This document shows, one piece after another, positions 860 through 53,511 of a stretch of DNA of 53,511 nucleotides (its first letter is position 1; each line of letters opens with the position of its first letter). The position numbers and the translations under genes were made by a program. Source of the DNA: Paraspadella gotoi (Eukaryota; Animalia; Chaetognatha); the NCBI GenBank assembly GCA_051294375.1, contig JBJCIZ010000622.1, positions 1-53,511 of the forward strand, written 5' to 3'. The notes beneath the pieces were generated by a model. It was not told the DNA's origin, made no database searches, and saw only the letters and a list, made by a program, of their open reading frames with translations.

Positions 860-2243
860 GGATAGATAAATCGAAAATTGAATGTGTTCGTGTAGGGGTA
901 GGAAAGTATGTGATAAAGCTGGGATATTAAATTTTTGATGGAATCGTAGGAGTGGGAAAAGAGTTCAAATTACGAAAAACCAAAGGACATATTTTTTTTT
1001 GATTTTTTAAAGTTTCTTCTTCATCTTTCTATCTCTCTCTGAGTTGATTGAATTTGATATTTATTGTATTGACCAAATTATGACAATTGACAAAAATATG
1101 CCAGTTTGACCAAATTCTTTAAATTGACCCAAATTATGCCAGTTGACCAAATTTCTGCAAGTTGATCAAGTTCTGCAAGTTGACCAAAATTATGCCTGTT
1201 GACCAAATTATGCAGTTGACCAAATATAGGGCCAGTTGATAAAGTTATGCCAGATTGACCAAATAGCCGGTTGACCAAATTATCTTAATTGATAATCAAA
1301 TCTATGTCACCGTTGACCAAATTATGTTCATGTGACCCAAATTATGGTCAGCTAGACCAAAATTATGTCAGTTAACCAAATTCATGTCTTGTTAACCAAA
1401 TTATTCAGTTGACCAAAATTTTATTTCAGTTGACCCAATTATGTCAGTAGACCAAGTTCTTATGTCAGTTTAACCAAATTATGCAAGTTGAATTAAATTA
1501 TGCAAGTTGACCAAGTTAGCCTTATTACCACTTAATTATCGATTGACCTGGAATTTTGTATGTGAGTAGAAAGTGTGTGATTGAAACAGGATACCAAGTT
1601 TCGATGGAATCTTTTGAGTAAGAAATGAGTTTAAATGGAAAAAAACAAAAAACCTGTTTCACTAATGATTATGAATTCTTTTTCCTTATATATTAAATGT
1701 ATATGCAGGATGTATTAATAAATCAAATAATCAGTTATATTAAATTAATTAGTCAATTATTAATCAATAATTATATTGAATCAGCAATCAATCCGTCCAC
1801 CGTCCCACCTTAACAAAAAGCTCCAAAAAAACTCGTGATTGTGCTGGTTGGATTGAGAATGAATTTTGTTGCTGTGGTAGAGAAAGGTTGTGGGGTATAA
1901 AGGCTGCGTATATAAAGTTTCGACGGAATCTCGTGTAAGTGAAATGAGTTTAAAGTTGGGAAAAAACATAAGTCGCATTTACTAAAATATTTACTTATTT
2001 TTAACCAATTAAATACTCTAAATTAATCATTTTGGATGGATAGATTGAGTTCAAATTTTTTGTGGTGGTAGAAAATTGTTGTAACGATGCTTAATATAAA
2101 GTTTCGCGTGGAAACGTACGATGGAAATGAGTTTAAATAAAAAAAAATAATGATCACATTTATTTGAATCATTTTACTTATTTTAACCCATAATAGATTG
2201 AGATGAAATTTTGTGAGCGGGTAGGAAAGTGTGTGAAGAAGCT
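860..2243 (+). mobile_element. Internal part of a Helentron-associated (HINE/DINE-1-like) element, family A
   Basis: Repeated ~130-bp modules (aaattttgtgtgtgggtaggaaa...aagtttcgatggaatc...aatgagtttaaatggaaaaaa). 1540-2243 is colinear with 44030-44714. Confidence 0.75.
1066..1516 (+). repeat. Minisatellite, ~18-19-bp unit (ttgaccaaattatgc/ncag)
   Basis: About 20 or more degenerate tandem units. The same array occurs inverted at ~20968-21166. Confidence 0.9.
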
Positions 2244-5200
2244 CTTCCTCTTTTCTGTTCTCTTTCTTAGTAGTTTTATTCTTTCTTTTTTCTTTTTTCT
2301 TTTTTTTCTTTTTCTTATCAGTTCCCTTTTTCTCTCCCTTTAGCTTTTAGTATTTTTCTAGTCTAGCTTTCTTTCTCTCCTAGTTTCGTCTCTAGCTCCT
2401 ATTTATAGACCTTGGCCTTTCTTTCCTTTTTTTTAATTATTCTCATTTTCTTTTTCTTTTCTTTTCTTTTTTCTTTTTTCTGCTAGTTATTTTCTTCTTT
2501 TAGCTTTTATCTCTTCTTTACTTCTTTCTTGCTTTCTCTTTTCTCTTCTCTTCTTCTCTTTTTTTTCTTCTTCCTTTTAATTTAGTCTACTAGTCTCCTT
2601 TTTTTCTTTTAGCTTTTTTTCTCCTTTTCTTTAGTTCTTTTTTTCTTCTTTTTACCTCTTCTTATTCTTTTTTCTTTTTCTTCTTTTCTTTCTTAGTTAT
2701 TCTTTATTAAGCTTCTAGCTTCTTTTTCTCTTCTCTCTTTCCTTTTTTCTGTTAGGTTTAAGTCCTTCTTACTTAGGCTTTTTAGTTTCTTCTTCTATTT
2801 CTTTTTTCTTAGTAGTTTAGACTAGCTATAGTATATTCTCTTTAGCTCCTTAGTCTTTAGCTCTAGATTTTTCTTCTAGTTTTTATTCTTCTTTTCCTCT
2901 TCTTCCTTCTTCTTTAGCTCCTTCTCTTTTAGTTTTTTTTTCCTGGCTCTTTCTTCCTTTCTTGTCTTTAGTTAGCCTTCTCTTTCTTTCCTAGTTCCTC
3001 CTTTTTCTCTTTTTTCTATTTTTCTCTTAGCTCTTTTTTAGTCTCTTTCTCTTCTTCTCCTTCTCTAAGCTCTTTCTTTAGCTTGTTTCTTTCTCTTTCT
3101 AGCTTTTCCTTTCTCTCTATTTTCTTTTGTCTTAGTTTTTTCTAGCTTCTCCTTTTCTTTCTTTATGTTTTTTCTAGTTAGTTATAGCTTTTTTTTTCTT
3201 TTAGCTCTTCAGCTTCTTTAGCTCCTCTTCTTCTTTAGTTTCTTTCTTTTTAGTCTGCTTCTTTTTCTCTTCTCTTCCCTTTTTCCTCTTTTTTAGTTTT
3301 TATTCTTAGTCTAGCTCTCCCTTCTAGTTCTTTCTTCCTTTTACTTTTTTTTTTTTTACTCTTCTTTTCTAAGTTTTTATTTCTAATTTCTTCTTTTCTT
3401 AGTTCTAGGTCTTTTTTCTAGTTTTTCTTTTTTTCTTCTCTTCGGCCTTTCTTCTTTCTTATTTAGCTTTTTTAGTTTTTTATAGTTTTTTCTCTTTTCT
3501 TCTACTAGTCCTTAGTTATTTTCCTTAGCCTTTTTTCCCTTAGCTTTTTTGAGTTTTCTCCTTTTTTCCTTTTACCTTCTTCTTTCCTTAGTCCCTAGTT
3601 CTTTTAGGCTCTTTTCTCTTTCTTTTCTTCTTTTTCAGCCTAACTTTCCCTTTTCCCTTCTTTTCTTTCTTTTCTCTTTTCTTAGCTTCTTTTTCTTTAC
3701 CTTTCTTCTTTAGTTTTTCTCTTTTTCTCTAGAGTAGTTTTTCTTCTGTCTAGTTTCTTTTCTTTTCCTCTTTTTTTCTTTTTCTTCTTTCTTTTTTCTT
3801 CTCTCTTTTTTAGTTTAGTCTTTACTTAGTTAGCCTTTTAGTTTAGTCTCCTCTCCATTTCTTTTAGCTTCTAGATTTCTCTTCTCTTTCTTTTGTTTTC
3901 TCTCTTCTTTCTTTATCTTTTTTTTTCTTTTCTTTTCTTAGTCTTTTCTAGCTTCTTTTTCTAGACTCTTCCTTGTCTTTTTCTCTCTTTTTTTTTCTTC
4001 TTTTCCTTTCTTTTACTCTTATTCTTAGCCAGTTTTTCTTCTCTCTTTTTCTAGTTCTTCTCTTTCTATTAGGTTCTTTTGCTTTCTCATTAGTCCTAAG
4101 TTTTTCTCTTTTTTCTTTTTTTTTTAGCTCTCTTTCTTCCTTTTTTTCTCTGATTCTTTAGTTCCTTATTTTTAGTCTCTCTTTCTAGCTGCTTCTTTTT
4201 AGATTTTTTAGCTCTTTTTCTTCTTTTTTCTTCCTTACTAGCTAGATCCTTTTAGTTCTTTTTAGCTCTTCTTTTCTTAGTCTCTTTTCTAGATTCTTTG
4301 TTCCTTTTAATTTTTTCCTAGTTCTCCTAGTTTTAGCTAAGCTCTGTGTTAGTTCTGTTCTTTCTTTAGCCTCTCCTTTTTCTCTTTTCTTCCTCTCCTT
4401 TCTCTTCTTTTCTTTTTTTTTTCTTTTCCTCCTTTTAGTTTAGCTTTAGACTTCTTTTTTTTTTTTAGTTTCTATTTTTTTCTTTTTACCCTCTCAGCTT
4501 CTTAGTCTTTTTTTTCTTTTCTAGTCTCTCTTTCTAGCTTTAATAGAGCCTTCTTCCTTTTCTAGTATCTTTTTCTCTTCTTTTTTTCTTTACTCCTTTT
4601 TGTCTTCTCTCTTCATCCTTACCTTTTTTCTTATAGTTCTAGATTTTCTTTCTTTTTTTTTTTCTTTTTTTTTTCCTATTTAGACTTATCTTAGTTCTCT
4701 CTTTTTAGTAGCCTAGTCTTTCTCTCTAGTCTATTCTAGTTCTTCTCTTTTTCTCCGCTTAGTTTTCTTTTTTTTTTTCTTCTTTTTCTTTTTTAGTAGT
4801 TCCTCTCTTCTAGCTAGTCCTTAAGTTAAGGTTTATCAGTTCTTATTTTTTTTTTTTAGTTTAGTTTCTCTTTTTTTTATTCCTTTTTTTTTAAGTTCTT
4901 TTTTTCTCTATCTATTTTCTCTAGTTTTTGACTTTTCTTTTCCTTTAGTTTTTTCTTTTTTTTTAGCTTTAGTTCTTTTTTTTTTTTTTATTTATTTTTT
5001 TTTCTCTTCTTAGTTGTTTTCTTTTTATTAGAGTTTCTTCTTTCCTTCTTTTTCTTTTCTTCTAAGTCTAGTAGTAGTTTTTTCTACTCTCTCTCTTTTT
5101 AGTCTTTTTCTCTAGTTGCTTAGTTCTCTTTCCCTTTCTCTTTTTTCTTTTTTCTTTCTTTAGTTCTCCTAGCTCTTCTCGCTCTACGCATCTTTTTCTT

Positions 5201-8200
5201 TCTTAGCTTCTTAGTCTTTCTAGTATTCCTTTCTCTCTATTCTCTGCTAGTTCTCTTTTCTCTTTAAGTTCTAGTATTTTCTTCATTTTTTTAGTTTTAC
5301 TTTTTCCTCCTTAGTAGCTTTTGTCTTTCTTTCTTCTAGCTTTTAGAAGACTCCTCATCTTCTTTACTTCCCTTCCTTCTCTTTTAGCCTTCTTTTCTTT
5401 TTTGTTTCTAGCTCTCTTTCTTCTTCCTTTAGTTAGCTCTTTACTTCTTTTTTCTTTCTCATACTTTAAGCTTTTCTTTCCTAGTCATTCTTAGCTCCTT
5501 CCCTTGCATTTTTTCCTTTCTTTTTTATAGTAGCTTCTAGCTTCTAGTCTCTTTCTCTTTTTTTCGTCTTTGTAGCTCTTCTTGGCTTTTTTTTAGTCTT
5601 AGTTCTCCTCACTTTCTCTTCTTCTTTTTCTTTTTCCTCTCTCTTTTTCCTCTTTCTTTAGTTCTTCCTAGTTTTTTTTCTTTTAGTTAGTAGTTTTTAG
5701 TCTTTCGCTTATTCCTAGTTCTCTTTTTATTCTTCTCTCTTCCCTTAGTTATTCTTAGTTATCTTTAGTTCTTTTATTCTTCTTTCTTTAGCTTTTTTAG
5801 CTCTCTTCTAGTTCTTTTTCCTTTTCTTTAGTTTATTCTCTTTTTTCTCTAGTCTCTCTCTTCTTTTTAGCCTCTTTCTTTCTTTTTTACTTTCTTCTTT
5901 TTTTTCCTTCTTAGTTTAGCCTTTTTATTCTTACTGTCTTCTTTCTTCCTCTTTTTATAGACTCTTTTTTCTTTCTTTTTTTTCTTACTCTTAGCTTTTC
6001 CTCCTAGTCCTTTTTCTTTTAGTTCTTTCTTTAACTCTCTTTCTAGTTCTTTCTCCTTTTTTTTCTTGCTAGTTCTTCTTCTTTGTCTTGAGCTCTCTTT
6101 TTCTTCCTAGTTTCTCTTTAGTTTTCTCTCCTGCCTTTTCTTCTAGTTTTCCCTTTCCTCTCTATTTCTCCTTCTTTCTCTTTTCTAGTAGCTCTTCCTT
6201 TCTCTAGCCTTCTCTTAGCTTTTTCTTTCTAGTTCTTTAAGATTTCTTTTCTTTTAGTTTCTTTTTTCTCTTTCTAGTAGCTTTTCTTTTCTAGTCTGCT
6301 CTTTCTTCTTCTTGCTTTCTCCTTTCTTAGTTATTTAGTCTACTCTTTTTTTCTCCTCTCTTTCTCCTTTTTTTTTTCTTTATTTAGTTTTTTTCTTCTA
6401 GTCTTCCCTTTTTTTTTTTTCTTTTCTTCTCTCTTCTTCTTTCTTTTCTTTTTCGACCTCTTTTTTTTAGTCTTCTCTCTTCTTCTTCCTAGCTTCTTTC
6501 CTTTCTTAGTCTCTATTTTTTCTTTTTTCTAGTCTTCTTGGCTCTTCTAGTTTTTTAGCCTTTTTGTTTAGTTTAGCTTTTCTAGTTCCTAGTAGTTTCT
6601 TTTTTTTTCTAGTTCTTTTTAGTCTTTTTTCTTTTCTCTAGTAGCTTCTTTCTAGCTAGTTTCTTCATTTTTTTCTTTTCTTTTCTTAGTTCTCCTCTCT
6701 TCTTTAGTTTTTAGTCTCTTATTCTCTTTTCCTTCTTCTCTCTTTTTAGTAGGTCATCTATAGCTTCTTCCTTTTTTTTTTTTCTTCTTTCCTATTCTCT
6801 GCCTTTTCTTTTTTAGTCTTTCTAGTTTCTCTCTATGCTTCATCCCTGCCTTCTCTTTTAGCATTTAGGTTTCTATCCTTTTCCCTTTAGCTTTAAGGTT
6901 TCTTCTTTTTCTAGCTTTTTTAGTAGCTTTTTAGCTGCTTTGCTTTTTTCTTTTCTTTCTCTCCTTAGTTAGTTTCTCTAGTTTCTTTCTTCTTCCGTTT
7001 TTAGTTATCTTCTTCTTTGCTTCCTTAGCTCTCTTCGTTCTTTCTTTCCTTTAGTCTTCTTCTTGCTCTTTTCCTTCTTCTTCTCTCTTTTTTCTTTCTT
7101 TTCTTCTTTCTTCTTTTAGTTTTTTTTCTTTTTCTCTTATAGCCTTGCTACCTCTTTAAGTTGTTCCTTGCTTTTCTTTAGTTCTATCCTTTTTAGCCTT
7201 TAGTTTTTTTTAGTCTTTAGCTTTTTTCTTAGCTAGTTCTTTAGCTTAGTCTTAGTTAGTTTTTCTTTTTCCTCCTTTAGTCCTTTTTTCTTTCTATTTT
7301 TTCTTTCTTTTTCCTCCTAATCTTTCTCTTTTTCCTTTTTAGCTCGTCTAGTCTTTTTAGTTTCTTTTAGTTTTTAGCTCCTTATATAAGTCTTTTGCTC
7401 TTCTTCCTAGCTTTTTTACGCGTAGTTAGCTTTTTTTCTTTTTTTAGTTTTCTTCTATTCTTTCTTCTCTTTTTACCGTCCTCTTATCTTTTCTCTTTTC
7501 TATCTTCTTTGCTTTCTATTGCTTCTATAATTCTTCTTCTTCTTACTTCTTTTTAGCTTTAAGTTGTTTTCTAGTTTCTCTCCTTTTAGCTTTTCTCTAT
7601 TTTCTTTAAGTCTTCTTAGTCCCGTTTTCGCTTCTCTCTAAGTCTTTCTCTTTTTTAGTAGCCCTTTCCTTTTCTCTTCCTTTTCTTAGTTCCTTTTCAA
7701 CTCTTTCTACCTCTTTCTTTAGTTCTCTTTTTTTCTTGCTTTTTCTTCTGCTTTTTTAGCTCTTTTTTTCCTTTCTTTGCTTTTCTAGCTCCTAGTCCCT
7801 TTCTCTTTCTAGTTTCTTTAGCTTCTCTTTCTTTCTTCTCTTTTTTTTTCTTCTTAGCTCCCTTTTTCTCTTTCTCCCTTTTTCTTTTACTTTTTCTAGC
7901 CTTACTCTCTTCTCTTTAGTTACTTTTTTTCTTAGTTTCTTTTCTCTTTTTAAACCTTTCTTCCTTTTCTTTTCCTTTTCCTTCTTTCTTCTCTTCTCCT
8001 TTTTTCTCTTTCCTCTTTAGTATTTTATCTTTTTTTTACTCGAGTTTTAGTCTTTATCTTTTTACCTCTTTTAGATATGTCACTATATATAATTTCTTAG
8101 TTTTTTTTTTTTTTTTCCTAGCTTCTCCTTCTCTTTCTAGCTTTTTCTAGGCTTTTTTCTTATCTCTCTTTCTTCTCTCTTTTTCTGCTTTTACTTTTTT

Positions 8201-11200
8201 TTAGCTTTTAGCTTCCTTTCTGCTTTTCTTCTTAAGTCTTCTCTTCTCTTAGTAGTATTTAGTTATCTTATTTTTAGTCTTTCCTTTTTTCCTTTTCCTT
8301 TTTAGCTTTTTTCTAGCTCTTTCTCTTTATAGCTTTTTTCTTTTTTTTTTTAGTTAAGTTCCCCTTCCTCTTTCTTCTCCTCTTTTCCTCTCTCATTCTC
8401 TTTCTTTTTCTCTTTCTTTAGCTTTATCCTGGCTTTTCCTAGTCCTTCCTTCTTTCTTCTAGTTCCGGCTCTCTTTTAGTTTAGTCTTTTTTTTTTCCTT
8501 ACTAGTCTCTTTTCTTTAGCTCCTTTCTTTTTAGATTTCTCTCTTCTTTTTATTAAGTTAGCTTAGTCTCTTTCTTTTTGTTTCTTTCCTTTCTAGCTTT
8601 TCTCCTTTTTTTTCTTTCTCTTCTAGTTTTCTTCTTCTCTCTTTTTTCTTTTTCTCTTCTCTCTTCTCCTTCTTTTTCTCTTTTTAGTTCTTTTTAGTTT
8701 CTCTTCTTTCTCTCTATCTAGTAGCTTTTCCTTTTTCTCTTTAGTTTTTTCTCTTTCTCCTTTCTTTCCTTTCTCTCTCCTTTTTATTTATTCTAAGTTT
8801 AGATTCTTCTTTATTAGTCTTTTTTGTTTTATTTCTCTTCCTTCTAGAGCTTAACGTCTTTCTTCTTTACCTTTTTTCTTCTTTCTTCTCTCCTTCTCCT
8901 TTAGCTTTTTTTAGTTTTTCTTTCTTTTAGTAGTCCTTTAGTAGTTGTCTTTTAGCTTTCTAGTTTCTTTTTCCTTTCCTCTTTACTAAGTCCTCTTCTT
9001 TCTTTCTTTTTTTACTTAGTTCTTTTTTACTAGTTTCTCAGCTTTCTTTTTCTAGCTTTATTTCCTTTTAGCTTAGTCAGTCTTCTATTTTAGTTAGTCT
9101 TTTTCCTTAGTTTTTCTCTTTTCTTCGTCTCTCTTTTCTAGTTCTTAGTTTCCAAGATTCTTCTTTTTATCTAGTCTTCTCTTTTTCTCTCTTTCCTTTT
9201 TCTTTTTTAGTTCTTTTTCTTTCCATTAGTAGTCTTTCCTTTTTTTTTTTTTTCTGCTTAGTCTGTTAGTTTTTTTTTTCTAGCCTAGATCTTAGGCTAG
9301 TTTCCTCTCTTTTCTCTATTTTCTCTCCTTTTTTCACCTTTAGTCTTTTTTCTAGTGTCTTTATTCCTCTTCTCTTTTTTCTTTATCTTTTTTTTTTTAG
9401 TTTTTTTTTTAGCTTTTTATTCTTTCTTTGCTGCTAGTCTCCTAGCTAGCTTAGCTTTAGTCATTCTCTTAGTCTTTAGTCTTCCTCTACTTAGTTTCCT
9501 TCTTTCTTTCTCTTTTCATTTTTTATAGTTTCTCTTAAGACTCTTTAGCTCCCCTATCTTTTTTTTTTCTAGCTTTTTAGCTTCCATAGTCTTTTTCCTT
9601 CTCTAGTACCCTTTCCTTAGTTGCTTTTTTAGTGCTTTTCTCTCTTTTTTTCTTCCTTTTTGTTTTTTTTCGATTTCTTAGTCTATCTAGTCTTTCTCTT
9701 TTTCCCCTAGACTCTAGTTCATGTCTTCCTTTCTTCTCTTAAAGCCTTCTTTCCCTTTCTTAGTTTCTTCTTATTTTCTCTCTCTTTTTCCTTTTCTTCT
9801 TTAGTAGCCTCTTCTTTCTCTTCTCTAGCTTTTCTTTCTCTCTTTTTTTTTTCTAGTTTATGTTAGTTTCTCTTCTAGTAGCTTCCTTACTTTAGTAGTT
9901 AAGATAGCTTCTAGTTTTTCTCTTGCTTCCTAGCTGTTTTCTCTCTTCTTTACCTTTTTTTCTTCCTTTCTCTTTTTATTTTTTTCTTCTTCTCTTCCTT
10001 CTTCTCTTCTCTTCTCTTATCTAGCTTGTTTTTAGCTACTTTAGTTTCTTCTTTAATCTTTAGTCCTCTTTTCTTTCCTTTAAGTTTTTAGTTTCTTCTT
10101 CTTTCTCTCTTTCTCTATCTCTTTCCTTCTCTTTCTAGTCTCTACCTTTTCTCCTCGTTCTGCCTCTAGCTAGATCCTTTTTTTTTTTCTCTTCTCTTCC
10201 TAGCACTCTTCTTCTCTTTTCTTCTTTCTTTTAGTTTCTTTTTAAGTTTTTTCGTTCCTAGCCTAGCTCTTTCTTCTTCTTTAAGCCTAGCTTTCTTTTC
10301 TTTAGCTTTATTTTCTTTTTTTTGGCCTCTTTTACTTCTCGTTCTCTACCTCTCTCCTTTTTTACTTCTTTTTCTTTCTAGCTTTTTCTTTTCTTATCCT
10401 TATTATTTCTCTTTTCTTTTTTCCTCTTAGTTTTGTTTTTTCTTTTTCTTAGCCTCTTTTCTAGTTGTCTTAGCCTTTTTCTTTTCTTTTTTTTCCTATT
10501 TTCCTCTTACTTCTTAGTCTAGTTATTCGTCTCTCTCTTCTCTTCCTCTCGCTCTAGTTTTGTTAGCTCTTTTCTTCTTTAGTATAGCTTCTTAGTCTTT
10601 CTTATTCCCTTGCTCTGCTAGCTATTCCCTTTCTTCTCTCTCTTTTCTCCTTATCTCTCCTTTAGTTTTTCTCTCTTGCCTCTCCTTCTTAGCCTCTCCT
10701 TCTCCTTTTTCCTCTAGTTTTTTCCTTTCTTTGTTTCTCCTTCTAGCCTTTTTTTTTTCTCTCCTTTTTTTCTCTTTTTTCTTCTCCCTTTTCTTTTCCC
10801 TCCTCTTTTCTCTAGCCTTTCTCTTATTTTCCTTTAGTTCTCTTATAGTCTAGTTAGTTCTTTTTTCTTTCTATCTCCTTTTTTGTGCTTTCTACCTGCT
10901 TTTTCTTTAGTCTTTACCTTCCTCTCTTTATTTTGCTCTCTTTAGTTCTTAGTTTCCCTTCTTTTCTCCTTCCTCTAGTCCTCCTTCTCTTCCTATTATT
11001 CTTTAGTTTTAGTTTTTTTCTTTCTAGTCCTTTCTCCTCTCTCTTTTTTCCGCTTCTCTTTTTTTTTACGTCTCTCTGTAGTAAAGCTTTCTAAGCTAGT
11101 TCTAGATAGAGCTTTTCTTTTTTCTTTTTTCTTCTCTTTTCTCTCTTTTTCTTATTCCTTCCTTTTAGCCTAGTTTTTTTTAGTTTTAGTTTACTTTCTG

Positions 11201-12284
11201 GCTCCTCTCTCTGCTCTCTCTAGCTCCTCTGTCTCCTCTTAGCTACTCTTCTAGCTCTTCTTCTTTTTAGTTTTAGCTTTCTTTCTCTCTTTGCTTCTCT
11301 CTTCCTTAGTTCATTAGCTAGTTTTCTCTTCTCTTTCTCTCTTCTACTTTGTCTTTAAGCTCTTTAGAAAAAGCTTTAGGTTTAGTTTTCTCTTTAGTCT
11401 ATTCCCTTAGTCCTATACATCCTTTAAGTTAGTTTTCCTCTAGATTTTTTTTCCTTTCTTTTTTTTCTACCTCTCCTAGTTTCTTTCTTCCCTTTCTTGC
11501 TTTCTCTTTTTTTTTTCTTCTCTAGTGCTCTATTCTCTCTTCCTTCTCTATCTTTTGTTCCTAGTCTCTTCTTCTTTCCTAGCTCTTAGCCTTTTTTCTA
11601 GTAGCTTCTTAGTCCCTCTTTCTTCTTTTATCTAGTTTAGTTCTTTTTCTTCTTTTCCTTCCTTTTTCTCTATTTCTCTTTCTTCTAGTCTCTCCTTTTT
11701 TTCTTCTCTTTCTCTCTTTCTTTCTTCTCTTTCTCTCTCTTCTCTCTTCCTTCTAAGGTATGGCCTTCTTTAGCCTTTTTTAGCCTTACCTTTTCTTCTT
11801 TTTCCTCTTTAGTCTTTTCTTTTTCTTTCTCTCTTTCTCTTTTTTCCGTTTTTAGTTTCTTTAGCTTGCTTCTTCTCTGTAGCTCCTCTTCCTTCTCCTT
11901 TAGTCTCTTATCTTACTCTTTTCTCTTTTTCGCCTCTCTCCTGCTGCTCTTTCTCTTCTCTTTTTTCTTTTTAGCTTTTATCCTTAGCTCTCCTTTTCCT
12001 TTCCTTTCTCTTTTTCTTTGCTCTTTTTCATTTAGTCTAGTCATTCTAGTAGTTCTTCTTTTTTATTATTCTTCCTTCTTTAGCTTTCTCTTAGTCTAGC
12101 TCCTCTCTCTCTAGTTCTTCCTTTTAAGTTTTAGTTTTTAGTAAGCTTTTTTTGTTCCTTTAGTAGTCTTTTCTCTTCCTAGTCTTTTCTTTATCTTTCT
12201 TTTTCTCCTAGTTTTTTCCTCTTTTCTCTTCTTTTCTTTTCTTTAGTAGATTTTTAGCTCTTTTCTAGCTCTTTTCTTCCTTTT
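2244..12284. repeat. ~10-kb aperiodic polypyrimidine low-complexity block (T/C punctuated by TAG/AGCT)
   Basis: Almost only T and C with frequent tag/agct words and no period. Its flanks rejoin to the uninterrupted repeat seen at 44704-44748 (gtgaagaggct|agatataaagttttgacgg). Confidence 0.9.
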
Positions 12285-14295: not shown

Positions 14296-14697
14296 GAAAA
14301 AACATTAATAAAATGCTCTACACATTAAGTTAGAGAGAGAGAGTGAGAGAGATTGAGGGAGAGTTTCTAACAAAGTGCTGAGTAAAGGACAGTGGCCAGA
14401 TTAGAGGACAGGTGAAGGTAAGAACAGAGAAGAAGATAATTTTGAAATGATAGAGAGAGAGAGAGAGAAATAATTACATTTGACAATGTATAACAAAGAT
14501 AAATTTGGAAAAACTTAGAAATAAGCTGTGATTTTGAATTAATAACAAAAGTTAAATAAGTAGTAATGAAAATTGAAATGGAGGAATAGGTGGTGAGAAG
14601 GTAAGAATTTAGTGAAATATATATAAGAGAAGAAAGAGCTCAAAAATAAGCTGCCCCCCCCCCCGGGCGGATAAAGGTGGGACGCAAACAACCTTTC

Positions 14698-14990
14698 ACA
14701 GCAGCATACGTGAGTGAGACTGGGAAGTCTCTCTCAGATTGGTTCAAACAGCACATAAAGCCGTATCGTGACACACGAGGTCACTTCTTATTGGCTATTG
14801 CTGAGCATTCGGCATCTTCTGGCTATCTGTTTAGAGAGTCCGACTGCCTCGTGTTGTCCCATGACCAAAATTGGTTCTCAAGAGGTATTAGAGGGGCTGT
14901 CTACATCAAAGCCCTCAAACCCTCTTTGAACCCTGATGGAGGACGATTCGATCTCCCTCCAAGCTATGATTCGCTAATCAAACTGGTGGC
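14698..14990 (+). pseudogene. GIY-YIG endonuclease domain remnant of a Penelope-like element
   Basis: AYVSETGKSLSDWFKQH...AIAEH...LVLSHDQNWFSRGIRGAVYIKALKPSLNPDGG matches the PLE pattern YIGETxRxLxxRxxEH...SAIAEH...WxxRxIxEAIYI...PSLNRDxG, with substitutions at key residues (G>S, R>W, E>G). Confidence 0.85.
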
Positions 14991-15507
14991 GGAAGACCCA
15001 ATGCTACCCCAACCGCACGGTAATTCCCCTGTCCCAAATCAACAGGTCAGGTGGAGGCCTCCCGGCAAGCAATGGACGTCCGATACCTCTCCCAAACCTG
15101 TAGCAACTTGGCGTGACTCTCTGAATGCCAGGCTCCGCTTAAAACGACGGCTACAGGAGGAGGGAGAGTAGTCTGTATCTGCTGCACTGAAACAGGCAAC
15201 CGCCCACCTAACCGTCAGGTGAGAGGAGGGCCTTCGGCAGGCTTATTAGGCCAAAGAGATATTAGAGTGGCACTTGGTGTTTTCCCAGGCGGGTCTATAC
15301 CTGACCCCATGATATCCCACTCTACAAGAATATTATCTCAGACTATGACAAGCCAATGACCCGATCACATCATCAGCGTCCCACCTTTGTCCGCCCGGGG
15401 GGGGCCAGCTCATTTTTGAGATCTTTCTTCTCTTATATATATTTCACTAAACTCTTACCTTATCTATCCATCACCACCTAGATTAGATTTGATTTTTAAC
15501 AAATGAG

Positions 15508-24643: not shown

Positions 24644-24870
24644 TATGGTGGACTAAAATCCACCAACCGTTCATCAGCCGGCCATTGGTGCCGGAGGCAA
24701 GTCATTCGCTCTCCCAACCCAAAGGTCCGGGGTTCTAAGCCCGGTGGTCGTCTGGGCAGTTAAGAGGGACGGGGTGCTTAACACGCCTGTAACATGGTGT
24801 TACAGCCTGATCCGAAGCTCAGGGACTGCTTATATTGAACGGGTTCTATCACTAACACATAATAATAATT
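24644..24870 (+). mobile_element. tRNA-derived SINE-like element with twister ribozyme, copy 1
   Basis: 5' hairpin tggtgga/tccacca, A-box-like TGGTGCCGGAGG, B-box-like GGTTCTAAGCC within a T-arm (ccggg/cccgg), twister fold, then a (TAA)n tail. Confidence 0.75.
24756..24829 (+). ncRNA. Twister ribozyme, type P5 permutation
   Basis: P5 GCAGUU/GACUGC; GA-CGG; U^AA at 24779/24780; GCC; P3 UGUAAC/GUUACA; P4 CCUGA/UCAGG; L4 UCCGAAGC; pseudoknots CCG:CGG and GC:GC. P2 is weakened in this copy. Confidence 0.75.
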
Positions 24871-25065
24871 ACTGTCTCTTCATTGTGAGCCCGACTTCCG
24901 AACACAACAGCAACAACAACACTTTCAGGCGACATGCCTCAACCTGCGATGCACTTTCCGCCCACAACACATCAGGCGACATGCCTCAACTTGGTGACGA
25001 ACTTTCCACAACCAACAATTCACTGAAGAGACGCAACAGACTTCTCCCTACGGGAGGGCGGGATG

Positions 25066-25290
25066 TATGGTGGACTAAAATCCACCAACCGTTCATCAGC
25101 GGCCAATTGGTGCCGGAGGCAAGTCATTCACCTCCCAACCCAAAGGTCCGGGGTTCTAGCCCGGTGGTCGTCTGGCAGTTAAGAGGGACGGGGCGCTTAA
25201 CCCGCCTGTAACATGGTGTTAACAGGCCTGATCCGAAGCTCAGGGACTTCTTATATTGAACGGTTCTATCACTAACACAAAATAATAATT
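25066..25290 (+). mobile_element. tRNA-derived SINE-like element with twister ribozyme, copy 2
   Basis: Near-identical direct repeat of 24644-24870. Confidence 0.75.
25175..25250 (+). ncRNA. Twister ribozyme, type P5 permutation
   Basis: Same fold as 24756-24829; U^AA at 25198/25199; P2 CCC with G(A)GG; small insertions in P3. Confidence 0.72.
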
Positions 25291-25497
25291 TATAAAGTTA
25301 AATGAAACTAAATAGAAAAAAATAATAAAGTTTATACAGCTTATTAAAACTTAGCTTATATTCTTATCAGATTTTACATTTACCATTTACCATTACAACT
25401 TTTAATTTATGTGATAATCCTTTCTTTTTTGTTGTAAATGATTTAGAGAAAAAAACAAAGTTTTTATTAGTTTTCAATGAAATTTGTTTTTATTGGT

Positions 25498-31958: not shown

Positions 31959-32262
31959 CGTTGATTTCATGCCTGACATCGACAGGTTTGACAATGAAGG
32001 AGGGGAAAGAGTCAGTAAATTCTACGAAGTCTTCGACGAAGGAATAAGAATCGTTGCATTGTTATCAAATCTCTGCAACCGTAACTCAGATTTTCAAAAA
32101 ACTTTCAAAATATGATCAGAACCATATTTAATGGAAATTAGATACACAGTCGGTAGGTCAAGTATGCTCAAAAGGATAGTAATAAAAATCGAGTGACTCG
32201 AATATGCAAATGAGATTAATGCGTCATCGTAAGGTTGAATATAAGGCAAAAAAGAGCATAAT

Positions 32263-32517
32263 GTAGTGGTAGTATTTCATATCACACTACTCGTCCGAGA
32301 ATCAGCAGCACCTATGGCGCTGGAGGTAGCACGAACTCCTCCCAACCCAAAGGACTCGGGTTCGCGCCCTGCTGATTCACACAAGTAAAAGCGGGACGGG
32401 GCGTTTAACCCACCTGTAGTGTCGGACTACAACCCGATCCGAAGTTCGGGACCTTGTGTGCAACGGACGGTAAACTGCTCGCGGCATTGTCTACCACAAT
32501 AAATATTTTAATAATAA
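32263..32517 (+). mobile_element. Divergent tRNA-derived SINE-like element with twister ribozyme, copy 3
   Basis: 5' hairpin gtagtg/cactac, A-box-like TGGCGCTGGAGG, shared ctcccaacccaaagg, B-box-like GGTTCGCGCCC, twister fold, AT-rich tail. Confidence 0.72.
32378..32460 (+). ncRNA. Twister ribozyme, type P5 permutation
   Basis: P5 CACACAAG/CUUGUGUG; GA-CGG; U^AA at 32406/32407; ACC; P3 UGUAGU/ACUACA; P4 CCCGA/UCGGG; L4 UCCGAAGU. Confidence 0.78.
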
Positions 32518-32759: not shown

Positions 32760-33325
32760 ATACAATTGAAACATTCTTTGAATCATTATACCACTTCATT
32801 ATCATCATTATTGATATGAAATAAAATTCTCATTAAGAGGGAAGCCAGGTACTCTGGGAGTGAATAAACGAGACTGTGAGAGAGTCTTGATTGAAAGCTT
32901 GCAGGGACCTACTATGTCATTATCTTGTAGGAGTGATGGAGGCCTCAAACCACCAAAGCCTGTCCAAAGTCAGGGGCAAGATAGTTTATTTATTAAATGA
33001 ATGGATAATTTTATATTGGTTATAACAATTTCATAAAATTCAGCTCCTTGTATTTTAATGCTGAGTAGAGTATAATTTAGTTTTCCCCAATCTATTACTT
33101 AAGGGAGTGGTCTTTTCATACAATTGAAACATTCTTTGAAACATTATACCACTTCATTGATAGGTAAACCAGGTACTCTGGGAGTGAATAAACGAGACAT
33201 GTCATTATCTTGTCAGAGTGATGGAGGCCTTAAACCACCAAAGCCTGTTCAAAGTCAGGGGAAAGAAAGCTTATTTATTAAATTAATGGATAATTTTTAT
33301 ATTGGTTGTACCAATTTCATATTAT
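32760..33325 (+). repeat. Tandem pair of a ~330-360-bp repeat unit
   Basis: Units at 32760-33035 and 33045-33325; other copies at 37232-37553, and inverted partials at 33554-33629 and 41068-41161. Confidence 0.85.
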
Positions 33326-34514
33326 AAACACTTTTAATAGGGAAAAGTCATTGACTCTTTTTGACAAAAACTAATTTCTTCTTTTTCGATTTCTGTACTA
33401 ATCGACTTTGTCGTCCTATAACTTTCGAACACTTTGCTCGACTTGTACCAATCGCTTTATCGTTCAATAAGCTTTATTTTATGTAAAATTGTAAAATTCA
33501 GCCATCCAATACGGTTTTTTCGATGTGAAAAAGTGGTTTTTTTGCGCCGTAGTGTACAAGATAATGACAGAGCAGTTCCTTGCAAGCATTCAATCAAGAC
33601 CCTTTCAAAAACTCGTTTATTCATTCCCACAAAATAATTTTGACATAATTGTATTTGTCAGTACAAAAAGTGTATTTTTTGCAAAATATTTTGACTTATT
33701 TTTTAAGTTATTATCAGTGGTAAAAGATTTAACAAGAATAAAAGTTTTTTCTGGAAACAAAAACGAAATATAGAGAGAGATTATAAGAGAGAAAGAGAGA
33801 GAAAGGCACAGATTGAGCCAAAAGTATAATTTTTAAATATAGGCTTTATAATAGTGTAAAGCAATAAAAGTTGGAATTTGATATAACTGAACCTTACCCA
33901 TGACAAATGAAAGATTTAACTTCGCATTTTTATTAACCTCCAAGTGACCCCAAAATTAAAATTCTTAAATAATTTTATTTTTTTTTACTGTCATATCTTA
34001 TTAGCTCAAATGAAATGATAATGCTCACTCTTTTCCTAGTGATGTATAAAAACTAAATTTAGCACCAACAAAATGAAAAAAGTTTCCTCATCTTCTTGTT
34101 TGCCATCACCTTACATAAAAGTATTTTTTTTATTCTAGAAGGAATAAACATTTTTATCTTTTTGGCAGATAAGCCAAAGGCCGCAGGTTCTTTTTTCTTT
34201 TTTTCAACTTTGTTGCCTTTTTTAAAGCAAACAAACAAAGATAATAACTATGATAAAGACGGAGAGAATCACAAAAACAATCATGAATTCTTTTTACTAT
34301 TATTCTTACTCTGAAATTAATTGAAGAGAGCGCTGGGAAGGAAAGCATCTTATGAATCCTTGCTGTTAAATTATTTTGATATGATTCAAGTAAACAGTAT
34401 CAAAATGGTTGTGAGAAAAAAAAACTGATTGATCTGTATCTCTCTGTCTCAATAGTTTTTTGTCATTGCTTTACTGTCTTACTATTTTTCAAGATTAGGT
34501 TACAAGAAACCTTT

Positions 34515-37231: not shown

Positions 37232-37553
37232 ATCCTTGTATTTTGATGCTAGTGCGGAGTACAATAAGTATTCCCCGATCTAATACTTAAGGGAGTGGTC
37301 TTTTCAAATTTCATACAATTGAAACATTCTTTGAAATATTTTCCACTTCATTGATAGGGAAGCCAGGTACTCTGAGAGTGAATAAACGAGACTGTGAGAG
37401 AGTCTTGATTGAAAGCTTGTAGGGACCTGCTATGTCATTATCTTGTAAGAGTGATGGAGGCCTTAAACCACCAAAGCCTGTCCAAAGTCAGGGGCAAGAT
37501 AGCTTATTTATTAAATGAATGGATAATTTTATATTGGTTGTACCAATTTCATA
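37232..37553 (+). repeat. Copy of the 32760-33325 repeat unit
   Basis: Shared ttaagggagtggtcttttc...gggaagccaggtactctg...ccaaagtcaggggcaagatag. Confidence 0.85.
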
Positions 37554-37599
37554 AGTGTCAGATGGAAAGGTTGGAAATTATGATTATATAATCAAAACA

Positions 37600-40432: not shown

Positions 40433-42731
40433 TTACTGTTCTGTGCATAAAAAAAATTCACTGTTCAATATTATTATATTTCTTTTTATTTTTTGAAATG
40501 TTATAGTTTCATATGTTGATATGCAAAATATCAATGCAAAATCTTTTTTTTGTTTTTTAGATATGACTGAATATATGGTGAAAGATGATAAATTTCTTTA
40601 AAAAGTTACTTATTCATATTTATTCATAGATTTGTATTAGATGAAAATAAAAAAAATTAATAGTACCAATAGTTAGTGTTATGTCTCAAATAGATAGAAA
40701 AAAAACCTCATTTAAAAATTTGATCGGTTAGTGGGGTAACTATGGCTTACCAATAGCATCCTCCACGCCGCTCCAAGGGAAAAAAAGAAAATTTGGAATG
40801 CACGTTACAGAAAGGGTACAGATAATGAACTTACTGACATGATAACCATGACCTTTTATATCTTATGAAATGGAGGCAGTAAAGAAATCTAAAAAAGTCG
40901 ATCATTAAGTCAGTCAATGAACCCTTTCCAATGGGCTATTACAAGAAATATATTTTCTTAATTTAAATGGATGATAAATAATAGAATTAAATTCCTTGCT
41001 ATATTTAAAAAAATTATCAACACAATTTAACATAATGATGTCGTGCTTTATCAAATATGTTGCCAGCTATGAAATTGGTACAACCAATATAAAAATTATC
41101 CATTCATTTAATAAATAAGCTATCTTGCCCCTGACTTTGGACAGGCTTTGGTGGTTTAAGGTAAATTTTTTAAAACTTTATTATGATAAACAAGCAGTCT
41201 GTCAAGCTTTTTCTTTGCAGTTAAAGATAATAAAAAATGACAATTTTTTTTCACAGACAAGAAGGTAGACATTCAGGCTGTTTATATCAAGCGATAAACA
41301 TTTTTGTATTTATCATTTTTGATATTTAAAAAAACATTTTATCAATCTACAACATAAATTTTTGTTTGTTTTTTACTTTAACTGAAAAATATAAGCAATT
41401 TTATAGAATAAAAAAAATTTAATAGTAATCAAAATGTAATTCAGTCTTTTATTTTTCAAATTACAAAAGAAAAATAAAAGATTTTACATGCCTTCATTGA
41501 AATTTTTAAAGCAAAAAACTGTTATACTTTTAACTCTGATTTAAACAAAAGCTGCGTAAAGATTTATGGATTTAATTTAAAGGAAAAACGAAATTTTTTC
41601 GCGCTTTAACAACATTTATTTTTTTATGTAATGGACAAGTTTTGACTCTAGTTTTCGAGTCTTTTCGTTTTTCCTTTAATCTATTTCAAACAACAAACGA
41701 AAGGATTATCACAAAGGATTTAATTTAATAAAACTTTTTTAGAAAGGTGTCCCATGATTAGGGCTTTAATTTGATACCACACCCACCTTGCTCCCTCTTT
41801 TCTTTCAAAAGTTATTTAAAAAAATATTTTTTAAATGACGCTGTACAAATCTTTGTTAAATAAAAATTTCGGCAAAGCAGGAGTATCTCACTTATTTCTA
41901 TTGGTACAATACTTAAATTTCAAAATAAAAAAAATTTTTCGTTATTTAGATACATATCACTTTCAGATATACCCATCGTATAACAATTTATTTATTTATT
42001 TCCCCCAACAAAGCCTAATTAGAAAAGTTGAGATTTTTTAAAATTGTTGAAAAAAAAGTTTGTCTAACCTATGCTCATTGAGAATAATGGTTTTGAATTT
42101 TTTTTCCTAACTCAAAATCCATTATTCTCAAATTTCAAAATATTTTTTTTCAAAATCATACAATAAATTTTTTTTAATTAATTTAAAAGGTTTTTATGAT
42201 GTTGTTTTTGTTTGAAAGAATTGAAAAAAAGTGAAAAATACAATAATTATATAAGGTTTTTGAAAATACCCCTAAAATATTAGATAATTAGACACAAGGG
42301 GAGTAAGCAGAGAAAACTTCCCATTCATAAAAAAAATTAAAAATGAATTTGTCATATTGTTATTTAGATTAATTGACTAATTACAAGCTAATGCTTCATA
42401 TAAATTGAAGAAATGATGGGTAAAAAATATTCATCTTGGTCTCGGTTAACTATTAAGTTATCATTAAAGTTTTGTTTTAATAATATTAATATTCTTTTTA
42501 TATTTATAAAGGCAATAGTCTAAAATTTTGTAAGCGTTTCGAGCTATATTGCTTTATATTTTTTACTATTTTTGATCTAGTTAGCTTTTTTGTTGATGGT
42601 CAAGGGCTATGGTCAGTAGTGTATATCGCAAATATTACCAAAAATAACAATTAATTAATTTGGCTCAGAAACAATTTTAAAGGGACAAAATCAGCACGAG
42701 ACCGTTTAGCCACGTTATTTTTCATTATGTC
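40433..42731 (+). repeat. ~2.2-kb dispersed repeat, copy 2, with two small insertions
   Basis: Colinear with 28673-30903; insertions at 41068-41161 and 41581-41715. Confidence 0.9.
41581..41715 (+). mobile_element. 135-bp mini Penelope-type insertion with 13-bp TSD
   Basis: TSD ggatttaatttaa (41568-41580 and 41716-41728); empty site at 29746-29758; short inverted arms; tail gaaaggattatcaca shared with 25410-25424 (reverse complement). Confidence 0.75.
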
Positions 42732-53284: not shown

Positions 53285-53511
53285 CGTGACCCAGTGGCTC
53301 ATGGAGTAAAGCCATCAGCTCATGACCACTAGGTGTGGATAAGGCGCTAAGTGGGCTGAAGATGACTATCCTGTAACTTCTATAACCCCCTAGCAGCTAT
53401 GGACGGTCCTGGCTTGGAACCAAGGCTTGAGGGTTTTTCCACGCCCCAAGGCGGCTTACGGCCGTCCCTCACACTTCCCGCAGAGTAGGTACCGGTTGGG
53501 ATCGAACCCGG
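53285..53511 (-). mobile_element. tRNA-derived SINE-like element (head cut by the window edge) with twister-like motif
   Basis: Minus strand B box GGTTCGATCCC, then GAGGGACGG..UAA-GCC-GCC, P3 UUGGGG/CCUCAA and GCCUUGG-UUCCAAGC-CAGG. Confidence 0.5.

Follow-up and report, generated by a model that had tools for sequence, protein, structure and literature searches.

The window analysed here is a stretch of 53,511 nucleotides of contig JBJCIZ010000622.1 from Paraspadella gotoi. It consists of AT-rich, repeat-rich, eukaryote-like DNA without an open reading frame (ORF) longer than 164 amino acids. A candidate self-cleaving RNA motif of the twister type is found in it in three copies, near positions 24750 (copy 1), 25170 (copy 2) and 32380 (copy 3). 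A sequence-only reading had described the fold and its compensatory changes, and all of the sequences that it quoted are present. The more important fact, which it missed, is that the twister motif lies within the long terminal repeat (LTR) of a terminal-repeat retrotransposon in miniature (TRIM).

LTRs and their tRNA-like head

A single TRIM of 647 bp (24644-25290, forward strand), designated family A, has copies 1 and 2 as its two LTRs. The 5' LTR (24644-24882) starts with TA, ends with CA and carries a twister at 24756-24829, with a predicted cut at 24779/24780. The 3' LTR (25066-25290), from which the last 12 bp are gone, carries a second twister at 25175-25250, with a predicted cut at 25198/25199. 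The two LTRs are 93.9% identical over 229 columns.

Between the LTRs lies an internal region of about 183 bp (24883-25065) that is non-coding and multi-copy. Its primer-binding site (PBS) is of the tRNA-Trp type (24884-24895) and opens one base past the LTR end. Its polypurine tract (PPT; 25052-25063) stands 2 nt before the 3' LTR. Thus two LTRs surround a short non-coding interior with PBS and PPT, as in the TRIM group Helenus.

Further copies were examined by aligning assembled contigs of four public runs (X1 and X2 among them) to the window; contig depth in these data is not copy number. The region 24862-25340 is matched by 12,790, 10,435, 1,775 and 795 contigs in the four runs, and the interior is covered throughout in all of them. 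One more G stands behind 24884 in 97% of X1 depth; read with it, 12 of 13 letters are those of the tRNA-Trp PBS in Fig. S2 of Kojima 2024. Position 25059 in the PPT is a purine in 96% of X1 depth. The joint from LTR end to PBS (25290 to 24885) is present in all four runs, in 1-2 contigs each. Dispersed copies begin at 25066, 2 nt past the PPT end (146, 152, 60 and 28 contigs), and finish at ..TTCA before AT-rich flanks (93, 82, 33 and 24 contigs). A start 2 nt after the PPT would fit the 2-nt trimming performed by an integrase. LTR depth is several-fold above interior depth in all four runs, which is what a predominance of solo LTRs would give.

The target-site duplication of the family A element is not recoverable because its 3' end is shortened. 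One can be seen at copy 3, which is a solo LTR of a second family, family B. This LTR occupies 32262-32498 (forward strand, 237 bp, TG...CA) and is flanked by the 4-bp duplication ATAA, of the animal type, at 32258-32261 and 32499-32502. Contigs matching copy 3 number 1,051 (X1), 857, 235 and 78 in the four runs. The LTR ends are given by contig flank breaks, unrelated flanks setting in just before 32262 (15/16/8 contigs) and just after 32498 (14/14/5/3 contigs). Position 32257 is joined directly to 32499 in one contig each of X1 and X2, with four letters that fit either side; the two sides of these empty-site contigs are only 25 and 23 nt long and the flank itself is repetitive. The feature had earlier been extended to 32517, but the element stops at 32498. 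Taken together, the TRIM and LTR anatomy can be asserted with high confidence.

A short interspersed nuclear element was considered and rejected: there is no tail, the flanks diverge right after CA, and there is a PBS as well as a PPT. Among family A copies, variants at 25062-25290 are mostly C>T and G>A, many of them at CpG sites. The window overall is not CpG-depleted (observed/expected ratio 0.92). These variants hint at methylation aimed at the elements.

The LTRs of both families contain a tRNA-like segment upstream of the twister, with box A-like and box B-like motifs and an identical 16-mer. In copy 3 this domain spans 32300-32377 and is closed by a 9-bp helix. It includes the box A-like motif (32315-32323), a GGAGG/CCUCC helix, the conserved 16-mer (32338-32353) and the box B-like motif (32359-32368). 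The helices that close the segment are kept with different sequence in families A and B. An outer helix (32292-97/32464-69) encloses the tRNA-like domain and the twister together, and family A has a 7-bp counterpart of different sequence at the same place. Box A reads TGGCG..TGG in family B and TGGTG..CGG in family A; both are TRGYG, not exact TRGCY. Box B contains GGTTC in all three copies, and the two boxes are counted here as the box A and box B of a Helenus LTR. The distance from box B to the predicted cut is 45-47 nt in families A and B.

Upstream of this head, copy 3 has a 5' (U3) hairpin at 32263-32290. The claim that this leader hairpin is retained with another sequence holds as far as its presence goes. 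The hairpins of the two families are not alignable base by base, however, and the 5' arm also serves as the terminal inverted repeat of the LTR; in the minimum-energy fold of copy 3 it pairs with the LTR 3' end.

Copy 3 departs from the majority of its family at six places. Two of these are inside the twister, at 32405 in the linker and at 32432 just before helix P4. Loose contig ends at 32287-32288, 32389 and 32484 point to further family B subfamilies with other 5' hairpins, another 5' arm of helix P5 and another 3' end. Such subfamilies provide more natural variants for covariation analysis.

The twister fold and its covariation

The motif resembles the type-P5 twister ribozymes, a class reportedly described by Roth et al. 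in 2014. In copy 3 the candidate ribozyme spans 32378-32460 on the forward strand. Its helices are P5 (32378-85/32453-60), P2 (32393-94/32409-10), P3 (32415-31) and P4 (32433-50), and its pseudoknots are T1 (32397-99/32439-41) and T2 (32412-13/32444-45). The putative general base is G32395, a linker occupies 32400-05, and the predicted cleavage dinucleotide U^A is at 32406/32407. The elements follow in the order P5-P2'-G-A-T1'-linker-UAA-P2-T2-P3-P4/L4-P5, which is the order of the type-P5 twister permutation (PMC5408937; here and below, publications are cited from the accessible part of each source). The minimum-energy fold of copy 3 contains P3, P4 and P5.

The earlier identification of a twister fold is borne out by this order, while in two respects the motif departs from the textbook. 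The P1 consensus stem is replaced by a 6-nt linker, which in a monomer can form no more than one pair closing a 4-nt loop. P2, which has 4 bp in published examples, here has a 5' strand of only 3 nt and consists of two pairs, one of them covarying, followed by a C.A or C.C mismatch. The motif is thus best described as a candidate P1-reduced twister variant and not as a canonical member. High-throughput tests of natural twisters found flaws in P1 and P2 to be tolerated and changes in the pseudoknots or the catalytic positions to be harmful (PMC11662667), and P1 is dispensable for twister activity (PMC5408937; PMC11662667). In the present motif the pseudoknots and the catalytic positions are intact.

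A separate, unrelated repeat family with the same twister architecture, family C, can be used as a comparator. Three of its twisters, of the same subtype and without P3, lie on the forward strand at 32919-32984 (C1), 33205-33270 (C2) and 37437-37502 (C3, with a predicted cut after 37464). C1 and C3 were matched by a strict descriptor of the motif, at 32935 and 37453; C2 (at 33220) and a further copy at 41119-41189 on the minus strand add to these. The descriptor was composed after copies 1-3 had been viewed, so only its family C matches count as blind. It gives three matches in the window, whereas 100 windows with local shuffling yield none. Private mismatches prevent it from matching copies 1, 2 and C2. 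A relaxed descriptor does not discriminate, with 6 anchors in the window and a mean of 0.96 and a maximum of 6 in the shuffles.

Six copies from families A, B and C were aligned over 21 named pairs, and 95.4% of the 108 cells pair. Changes on both sides are seen at 9 of the 21 pairs, including one each in P2, T1 and T2; two of 500 shuffles reach nine double changes, and slid registers reach none. These six copies represent three lineages, and the covariation tool warns that related sequences can beat shuffles. In T1 (3 bp plus an A.A pair) and T2 (2 bp) all cells are paired, with one double change each. P4, with its L4 loop, has 4-5 bp, of which 3 pairs are changed on both sides. All six copies retain the catalytic G, A+1, A+2 and the A.A pair, and likewise the U^A dinucleotide except in C1, where position N-1 is C.

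Comparing copy 1 with copy 3 allows the earlier claims of compensation to be followed helix by helix. P3 changes from UA,GC,UA,AU,AU,CG to UA,GC,UA,AU,GC,UA, with two double changes. P4 shows one change from U-A to C-G, and T2 shows one from G-C to A-U. These three stand as reported. T1 (CGG at 32397-99 with CCG at 32439-41) is unchanged, and P3, P4, T2 and T1 contain no pair-breaking change. The motifs GACGG, UAA and UCCGAAG were correctly called invariant in copies 1-3. P5, which had been counted as a fourth compensated helix, has 6 bp in copy 1 and 8 bp in copy 3 and is not alignable base by base. It is a replaced helix, so that a claim of four compensated helices is an overstatement. In this comparison copy 2 supplied P2, since a G.A mismatch at 24783 is private to copy 1.

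P3, P4 and T2 together differ by 8 substitutions, all of which belong to 4 swaps of whole pairs. Random placement of 8 substitutions over 36 paired positions (18 pairs) would fill 4 whole pairs with a probability of 1.0e-4, a figure for helices that were picked after the sequences had been seen. Copy 2 breaks P3 and P5 by two extra bases and one substitution. At these sites 83%, 91% and 98% of the summed contig depth of X1 reads like copy 1, so the breaks are private to copy 2. The proposed selection on the RNA fold across two subfamilies is strengthened by family C, a third family of the same architecture with double changes in T1, P2 and P4. On these grounds the fold is very probably that of an active twister variant.

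Two observations concern other twister-like sequences in the window. The repeat stretches of family C lie at 32760-33321 (a partial tandem), 37233-37554, 41068-41161 (minus strand) and 33555-33629 (minus strand), and the copy at 41161 begins just 4 nt upstream of its predicted cut. Family C may represent either a pseudo-LTR of the Penelope/Naiad kind or a retrozyme in tandem; it shows no protein similarity to a Penelope-like piece elsewhere in the window. At 53398-53511 on the minus strand, a weak remnant resembling a twister (13.9 bits, E 0.024, own model) comes after a box B-like motif. This remnant has mismatches in T1 and P2, is cut by the window end, and is possibly a fourth family with a tRNA head and a twister.

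Relation to Helenus and retrozymes

Helenus elements (TRIMp3; Kojima 2024, PMC10886601) have a tRNA-like LTR, a PBS and a PPT, and in animals a 4-bp duplication and dependence on Gypsy. The family A and B elements share several of these features. They are TRIMs below 1 kb with boxes A and B in the LTR, a PBS, a PPT and the 4-bp duplication of animal Gypsy-dependent families, and the tRNA-like domain matches the Helenus head pattern TRGCY..YGG / GGTTC (PMC10886601). Some wasp Helenus LTRs also start with TA, and a tRNA-Trp PBS is present in Helenus-2_SyJa and Helenus-2_SyUm (PMC10886601). The difference lies downstream of box B. Most of the published Helenus LTRs inspected have a T-rich tract soon after it (PMC10886601), whereas in the present elements box B is succeeded by a twister of about 85 nt and a T tract is lacking.

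No ribozyme is reported for Helenus in the accessible part of PMC10886601, and the word 'twister' gives no match there. In its supplement, no twister can be recognized by eye in the animal Helenus LTR consensuses and in one of the four fungal parts. Six L4-loop 8-mers gave 4 matches in that supplement, none of them after box B; line breaks can hide matches. A different ribozyme may, however, be present in two families. In Helenus-2_SyJa-LTR and Helenus-2_SyUm-LTR (PMC10886601 DataS1), both primed by tRNA-Trp, a complete type III hammerhead is seen by eye just downstream of box B. This hammerhead of the gall wasp Synergus has, again by eye, the GUC triplet, both core motifs, three stems and complementary loops 1 and 2. 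It goes unmentioned in the same part of PMC10886601. Insect elements that carry type III hammerheads are mentioned as unpublished in a 2020 review (PMC7761336), and hammerheads of the Synergus type may be known to the group behind it.

The second point of comparison is the LTR retrozymes of plants. In these, cleavage at two sites removes the R repeat, and the resulting circle is a plausible template (PMC4918200). Like them, the present kind of element is non-coding, with one self-cleaving motif per LTR (here predicted), a PBS, a PPT, a 4-bp duplication, solo LTRs and a presumed Gypsy helper (PMC4918200; PMC7761336). Plant retrozymes differ in having type III hammerheads, a tRNA-Met primer, LTRs of 300-400 bp, and highly paired circles of 600-1000 nt that were shown in vivo (PMC4918200; PMC7761336). 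The element described here has a twister, a tRNA-Trp-type PBS, LTRs of about 238 bp, a tRNA-like head and a predicted unit of about 420 nt. It may work like a retrozyme but would not be a member as defined, because its fold is a twister and not a type III hammerhead. Animal retrozymes are tandem LTR-less repeats derived from Penelope-like elements (PMC7761336), and a 2026 preprint, as far as its accessible part goes, still treats LTR retrozymes as mainly plant and hammerhead-based.

Among twisters, the type-P5 class shares with the motif the element order, both pseudoknots, the catalytic G and A, and the A.A pair (PMC5408937; PMC8501958; PMC11662667). It differs from the motif described here, in which P1 is reduced to a hexamer that is self-complementary and the P2 5' strand is one nucleotide shorter (3 nt, not 4), and which Rfam does not recognize. 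The T-variant twisters of Schistosoma Perere-3 are likewise tied to a retroelement and have a poor P1. They differ in belonging to type P1, in having a P1 completed by flanking DNA, and in lying outside LTRs, at the 5' end of an RTE LINE (long interspersed nuclear element) (PMC8501958). A full-text search of the openly accessible literature, judged by titles, abstract openings and selected passages, found no description of a twister in an LTR or TRIM.

Pattern scans gave no relatives in viral contigs. In metagenome contigs there were 8 matches, all in sequence of 55-68% GC and by eye without the helices, and the tRNA-like 16-mer was matched twice in prokaryote genomes, in both cases with no twister after it. 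No relatives outside the source organism were thus obtained. Judged by its sequence features, the pair of twister-bearing, tRNA-headed TRIM families is a combination of Helenus and retrozyme features. From the sequence itself, an animal host is suggested by the type of the 4-bp duplication, a remnant of a Penelope-like element and the general repeat content.

Proposed replication cycle and alternative readings

The evidence leans towards a Helenus-type, tRNA-headed TRIM with a type-P5 twister in each LTR that works as a twister-based LTR retrozyme, with the full circle-based cycle. Because there is one predicted self-cleaving fold per LTR, as in plant LTR retrozymes, the same circle route is inferred here. 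RNA polymerase III would begin transcription in the 5' LTR, at its tRNA-like head, and would encounter no T4 run along the element. A unit of 419 nt would be freed by cuts at 24779/24780 and 25198/25199. A host ligase would close this unit into a circle, by which one whole LTR is restored. A Gypsy helper would then prime with tRNA-Trp, copy round the circle and integrate the cDNA. Solo LTRs such as copy 3 would come from LTR-LTR recombination or from short copying.

If this is true, the circle-based cycle also operates with a further class of ribozyme, and probably in animals. Few settings are known in which the twister has a biological role, and here it would gain a concrete and testable job. 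As the subtype is missed by Rfam, such ribozymes are probably under-counted, and the natural compensatory variants can serve as ready controls for disruption and rescue.

Several observations weigh against the cycle or against its parts. P1 does not exist as a normal stem, P2 is short, and the Rfam twister models give no match to the motif in the window at the gathering threshold or at E<=10; the 6-nt linker in place of P1 and the 3-nt P2 strand may explain this miss. Box B departs from its consensus, GTTCRANNC, in both families. ARAGORN finds no tRNA gene and calls no cloverleaf, and Rfam gives no tRNA match at the gathering threshold or at E<=10. That the 647 bp of the family A element contain no T4 run speaks for the cycle, but only weakly at 51% GC. 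Polymerase III transcription of Helenus was not validated in the corresponding part of PMC10886601 either. Folded as a circle, the cut-to-cut unit shows no unusual degree of structure (z -0.49 against 100 shuffles), in contrast to the circles of plant retrozymes; the private differences of the window copies weaken this score. The covariation has only three independent lineages behind it. No full family B TRIM was seen, only its solo LTR, and no Gypsy helper element was seen in the analysed data. The cycle itself is read from assembled contigs and predicted folds.

A variant that is compatible with the proposed cycle has a real, if smaller, chance of being right. The linkers of the two LTRs would pair as a 6-bp P1 in a domain-swapped dimer, the form in which alone the twister cuts well. 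Cleavage would then be confined to transcripts with both LTRs and would leave solo-LTR RNA and the monomer circle whole. The 6-nt linker is self-complementary, with G.U allowed, in copies 1, 2, 3, C1, C3 and C2 (whose hexamer is that of C1 and C3). Its innermost pair, which is impossible within one strand, swaps from C-G or U-G in families A and B to G-C in family C. Dimeric hammerheads are known in animal retrozymes (PMC7761336). On the other hand, the constrained energies are about equal (-141.1 kcal/mol for two monomers, -140.1 for the dimer), and the linker-linker pairing probability is 0 in an ensemble in which pseudoknots are not modelled. Monomers may also cut, given that tested twisters can do without P1, and the linkers amount to only 2-3 independent cases.

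A wider version of the same idea is more speculative. Animals would harbour polymerase III-driven LTR retrozymes hidden among the Helenus TRIMs, with the ribozyme as a swappable module: a twister here and, in Helenus-2 of gall wasps, a type III hammerhead. The twister would be a domain-swapped dimer between LTRs through a palindromic P1, and only full-length transcripts would be cut and circularised.

Alternatively, the twister may replace a terminator. The copy in the 3' LTR would trim the RNA end and the copy in the 5' LTR would be mostly inactive, and the TRIM would replicate as an ordinary linear RNA whose R repeat runs from the tRNA-like start up to the cut site. The twister does take the place that the T tract has in other Helenus LTRs, the predicted circle shows no unusual structure, and in a fold of the two-LTR stretch neither twister forms completely. 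Yet the same ribozyme is present in both LTRs, local folds favour P3, P4 and P5, and no switch that silences only the 5' copy was identified. The terminator role is unlikely.

It is also improbable, and somewhat more so, that the twister is a passenger captured from the tail of a Penelope-like (Naiad-type) element such as family C, with the compensation having arisen in donors or early and the TRIM no longer needing it. Family C, of the same subtype, lies 420 bp from copy 3, most published Helenus families manage without a ribozyme, and decayed variants are present in many contigs. Families A and B, however, share P3, the tRNA-like head and the spacing, and so diverged inside the TRIM lineage. 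The swaps between them in P3, P4 and T2 then postdate capture, while about one third of the surrounding LTR letters changed. Least credible of all is a DNA-level by-product of template-switch repair of inverted repeats or of integration hairpins, without catalytic RNA: P3, P4 and the 5' hairpin are local inverted repeats and Rfam gives no match, but the pairs changed on both sides in T1, T2 and P2 span long distances or form pseudoknots, the swaps in the pseudoknots are not explained by DNA hairpin repair, and the unpaired catalytic positions are invariant across three families.

Elsewhere in the window, some 10 kb at about 2200-12000 are extremely T/C-rich on the forward strand (AT skew about -0.75), with many TTAG/CTAG motifs. 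This stretch is possibly a low-quality read segment or a simple-sequence array. A Pfam search of 15 window ORFs gave only sub-threshold matches, and an Atlas search with a second window ORF returned nothing. An ORF piece at 14650-15171 on the forward strand resembles, by eye, the C-terminal GIY-YIG end of a Penelope-like element. It had no match in the Pfam search and no homologues were found for it; Atlas gave a weak GIY-YIG lead only (11% of one cluster). The block that contains it, 14650-15405, is bounded by C-run/G-run inverted ends.
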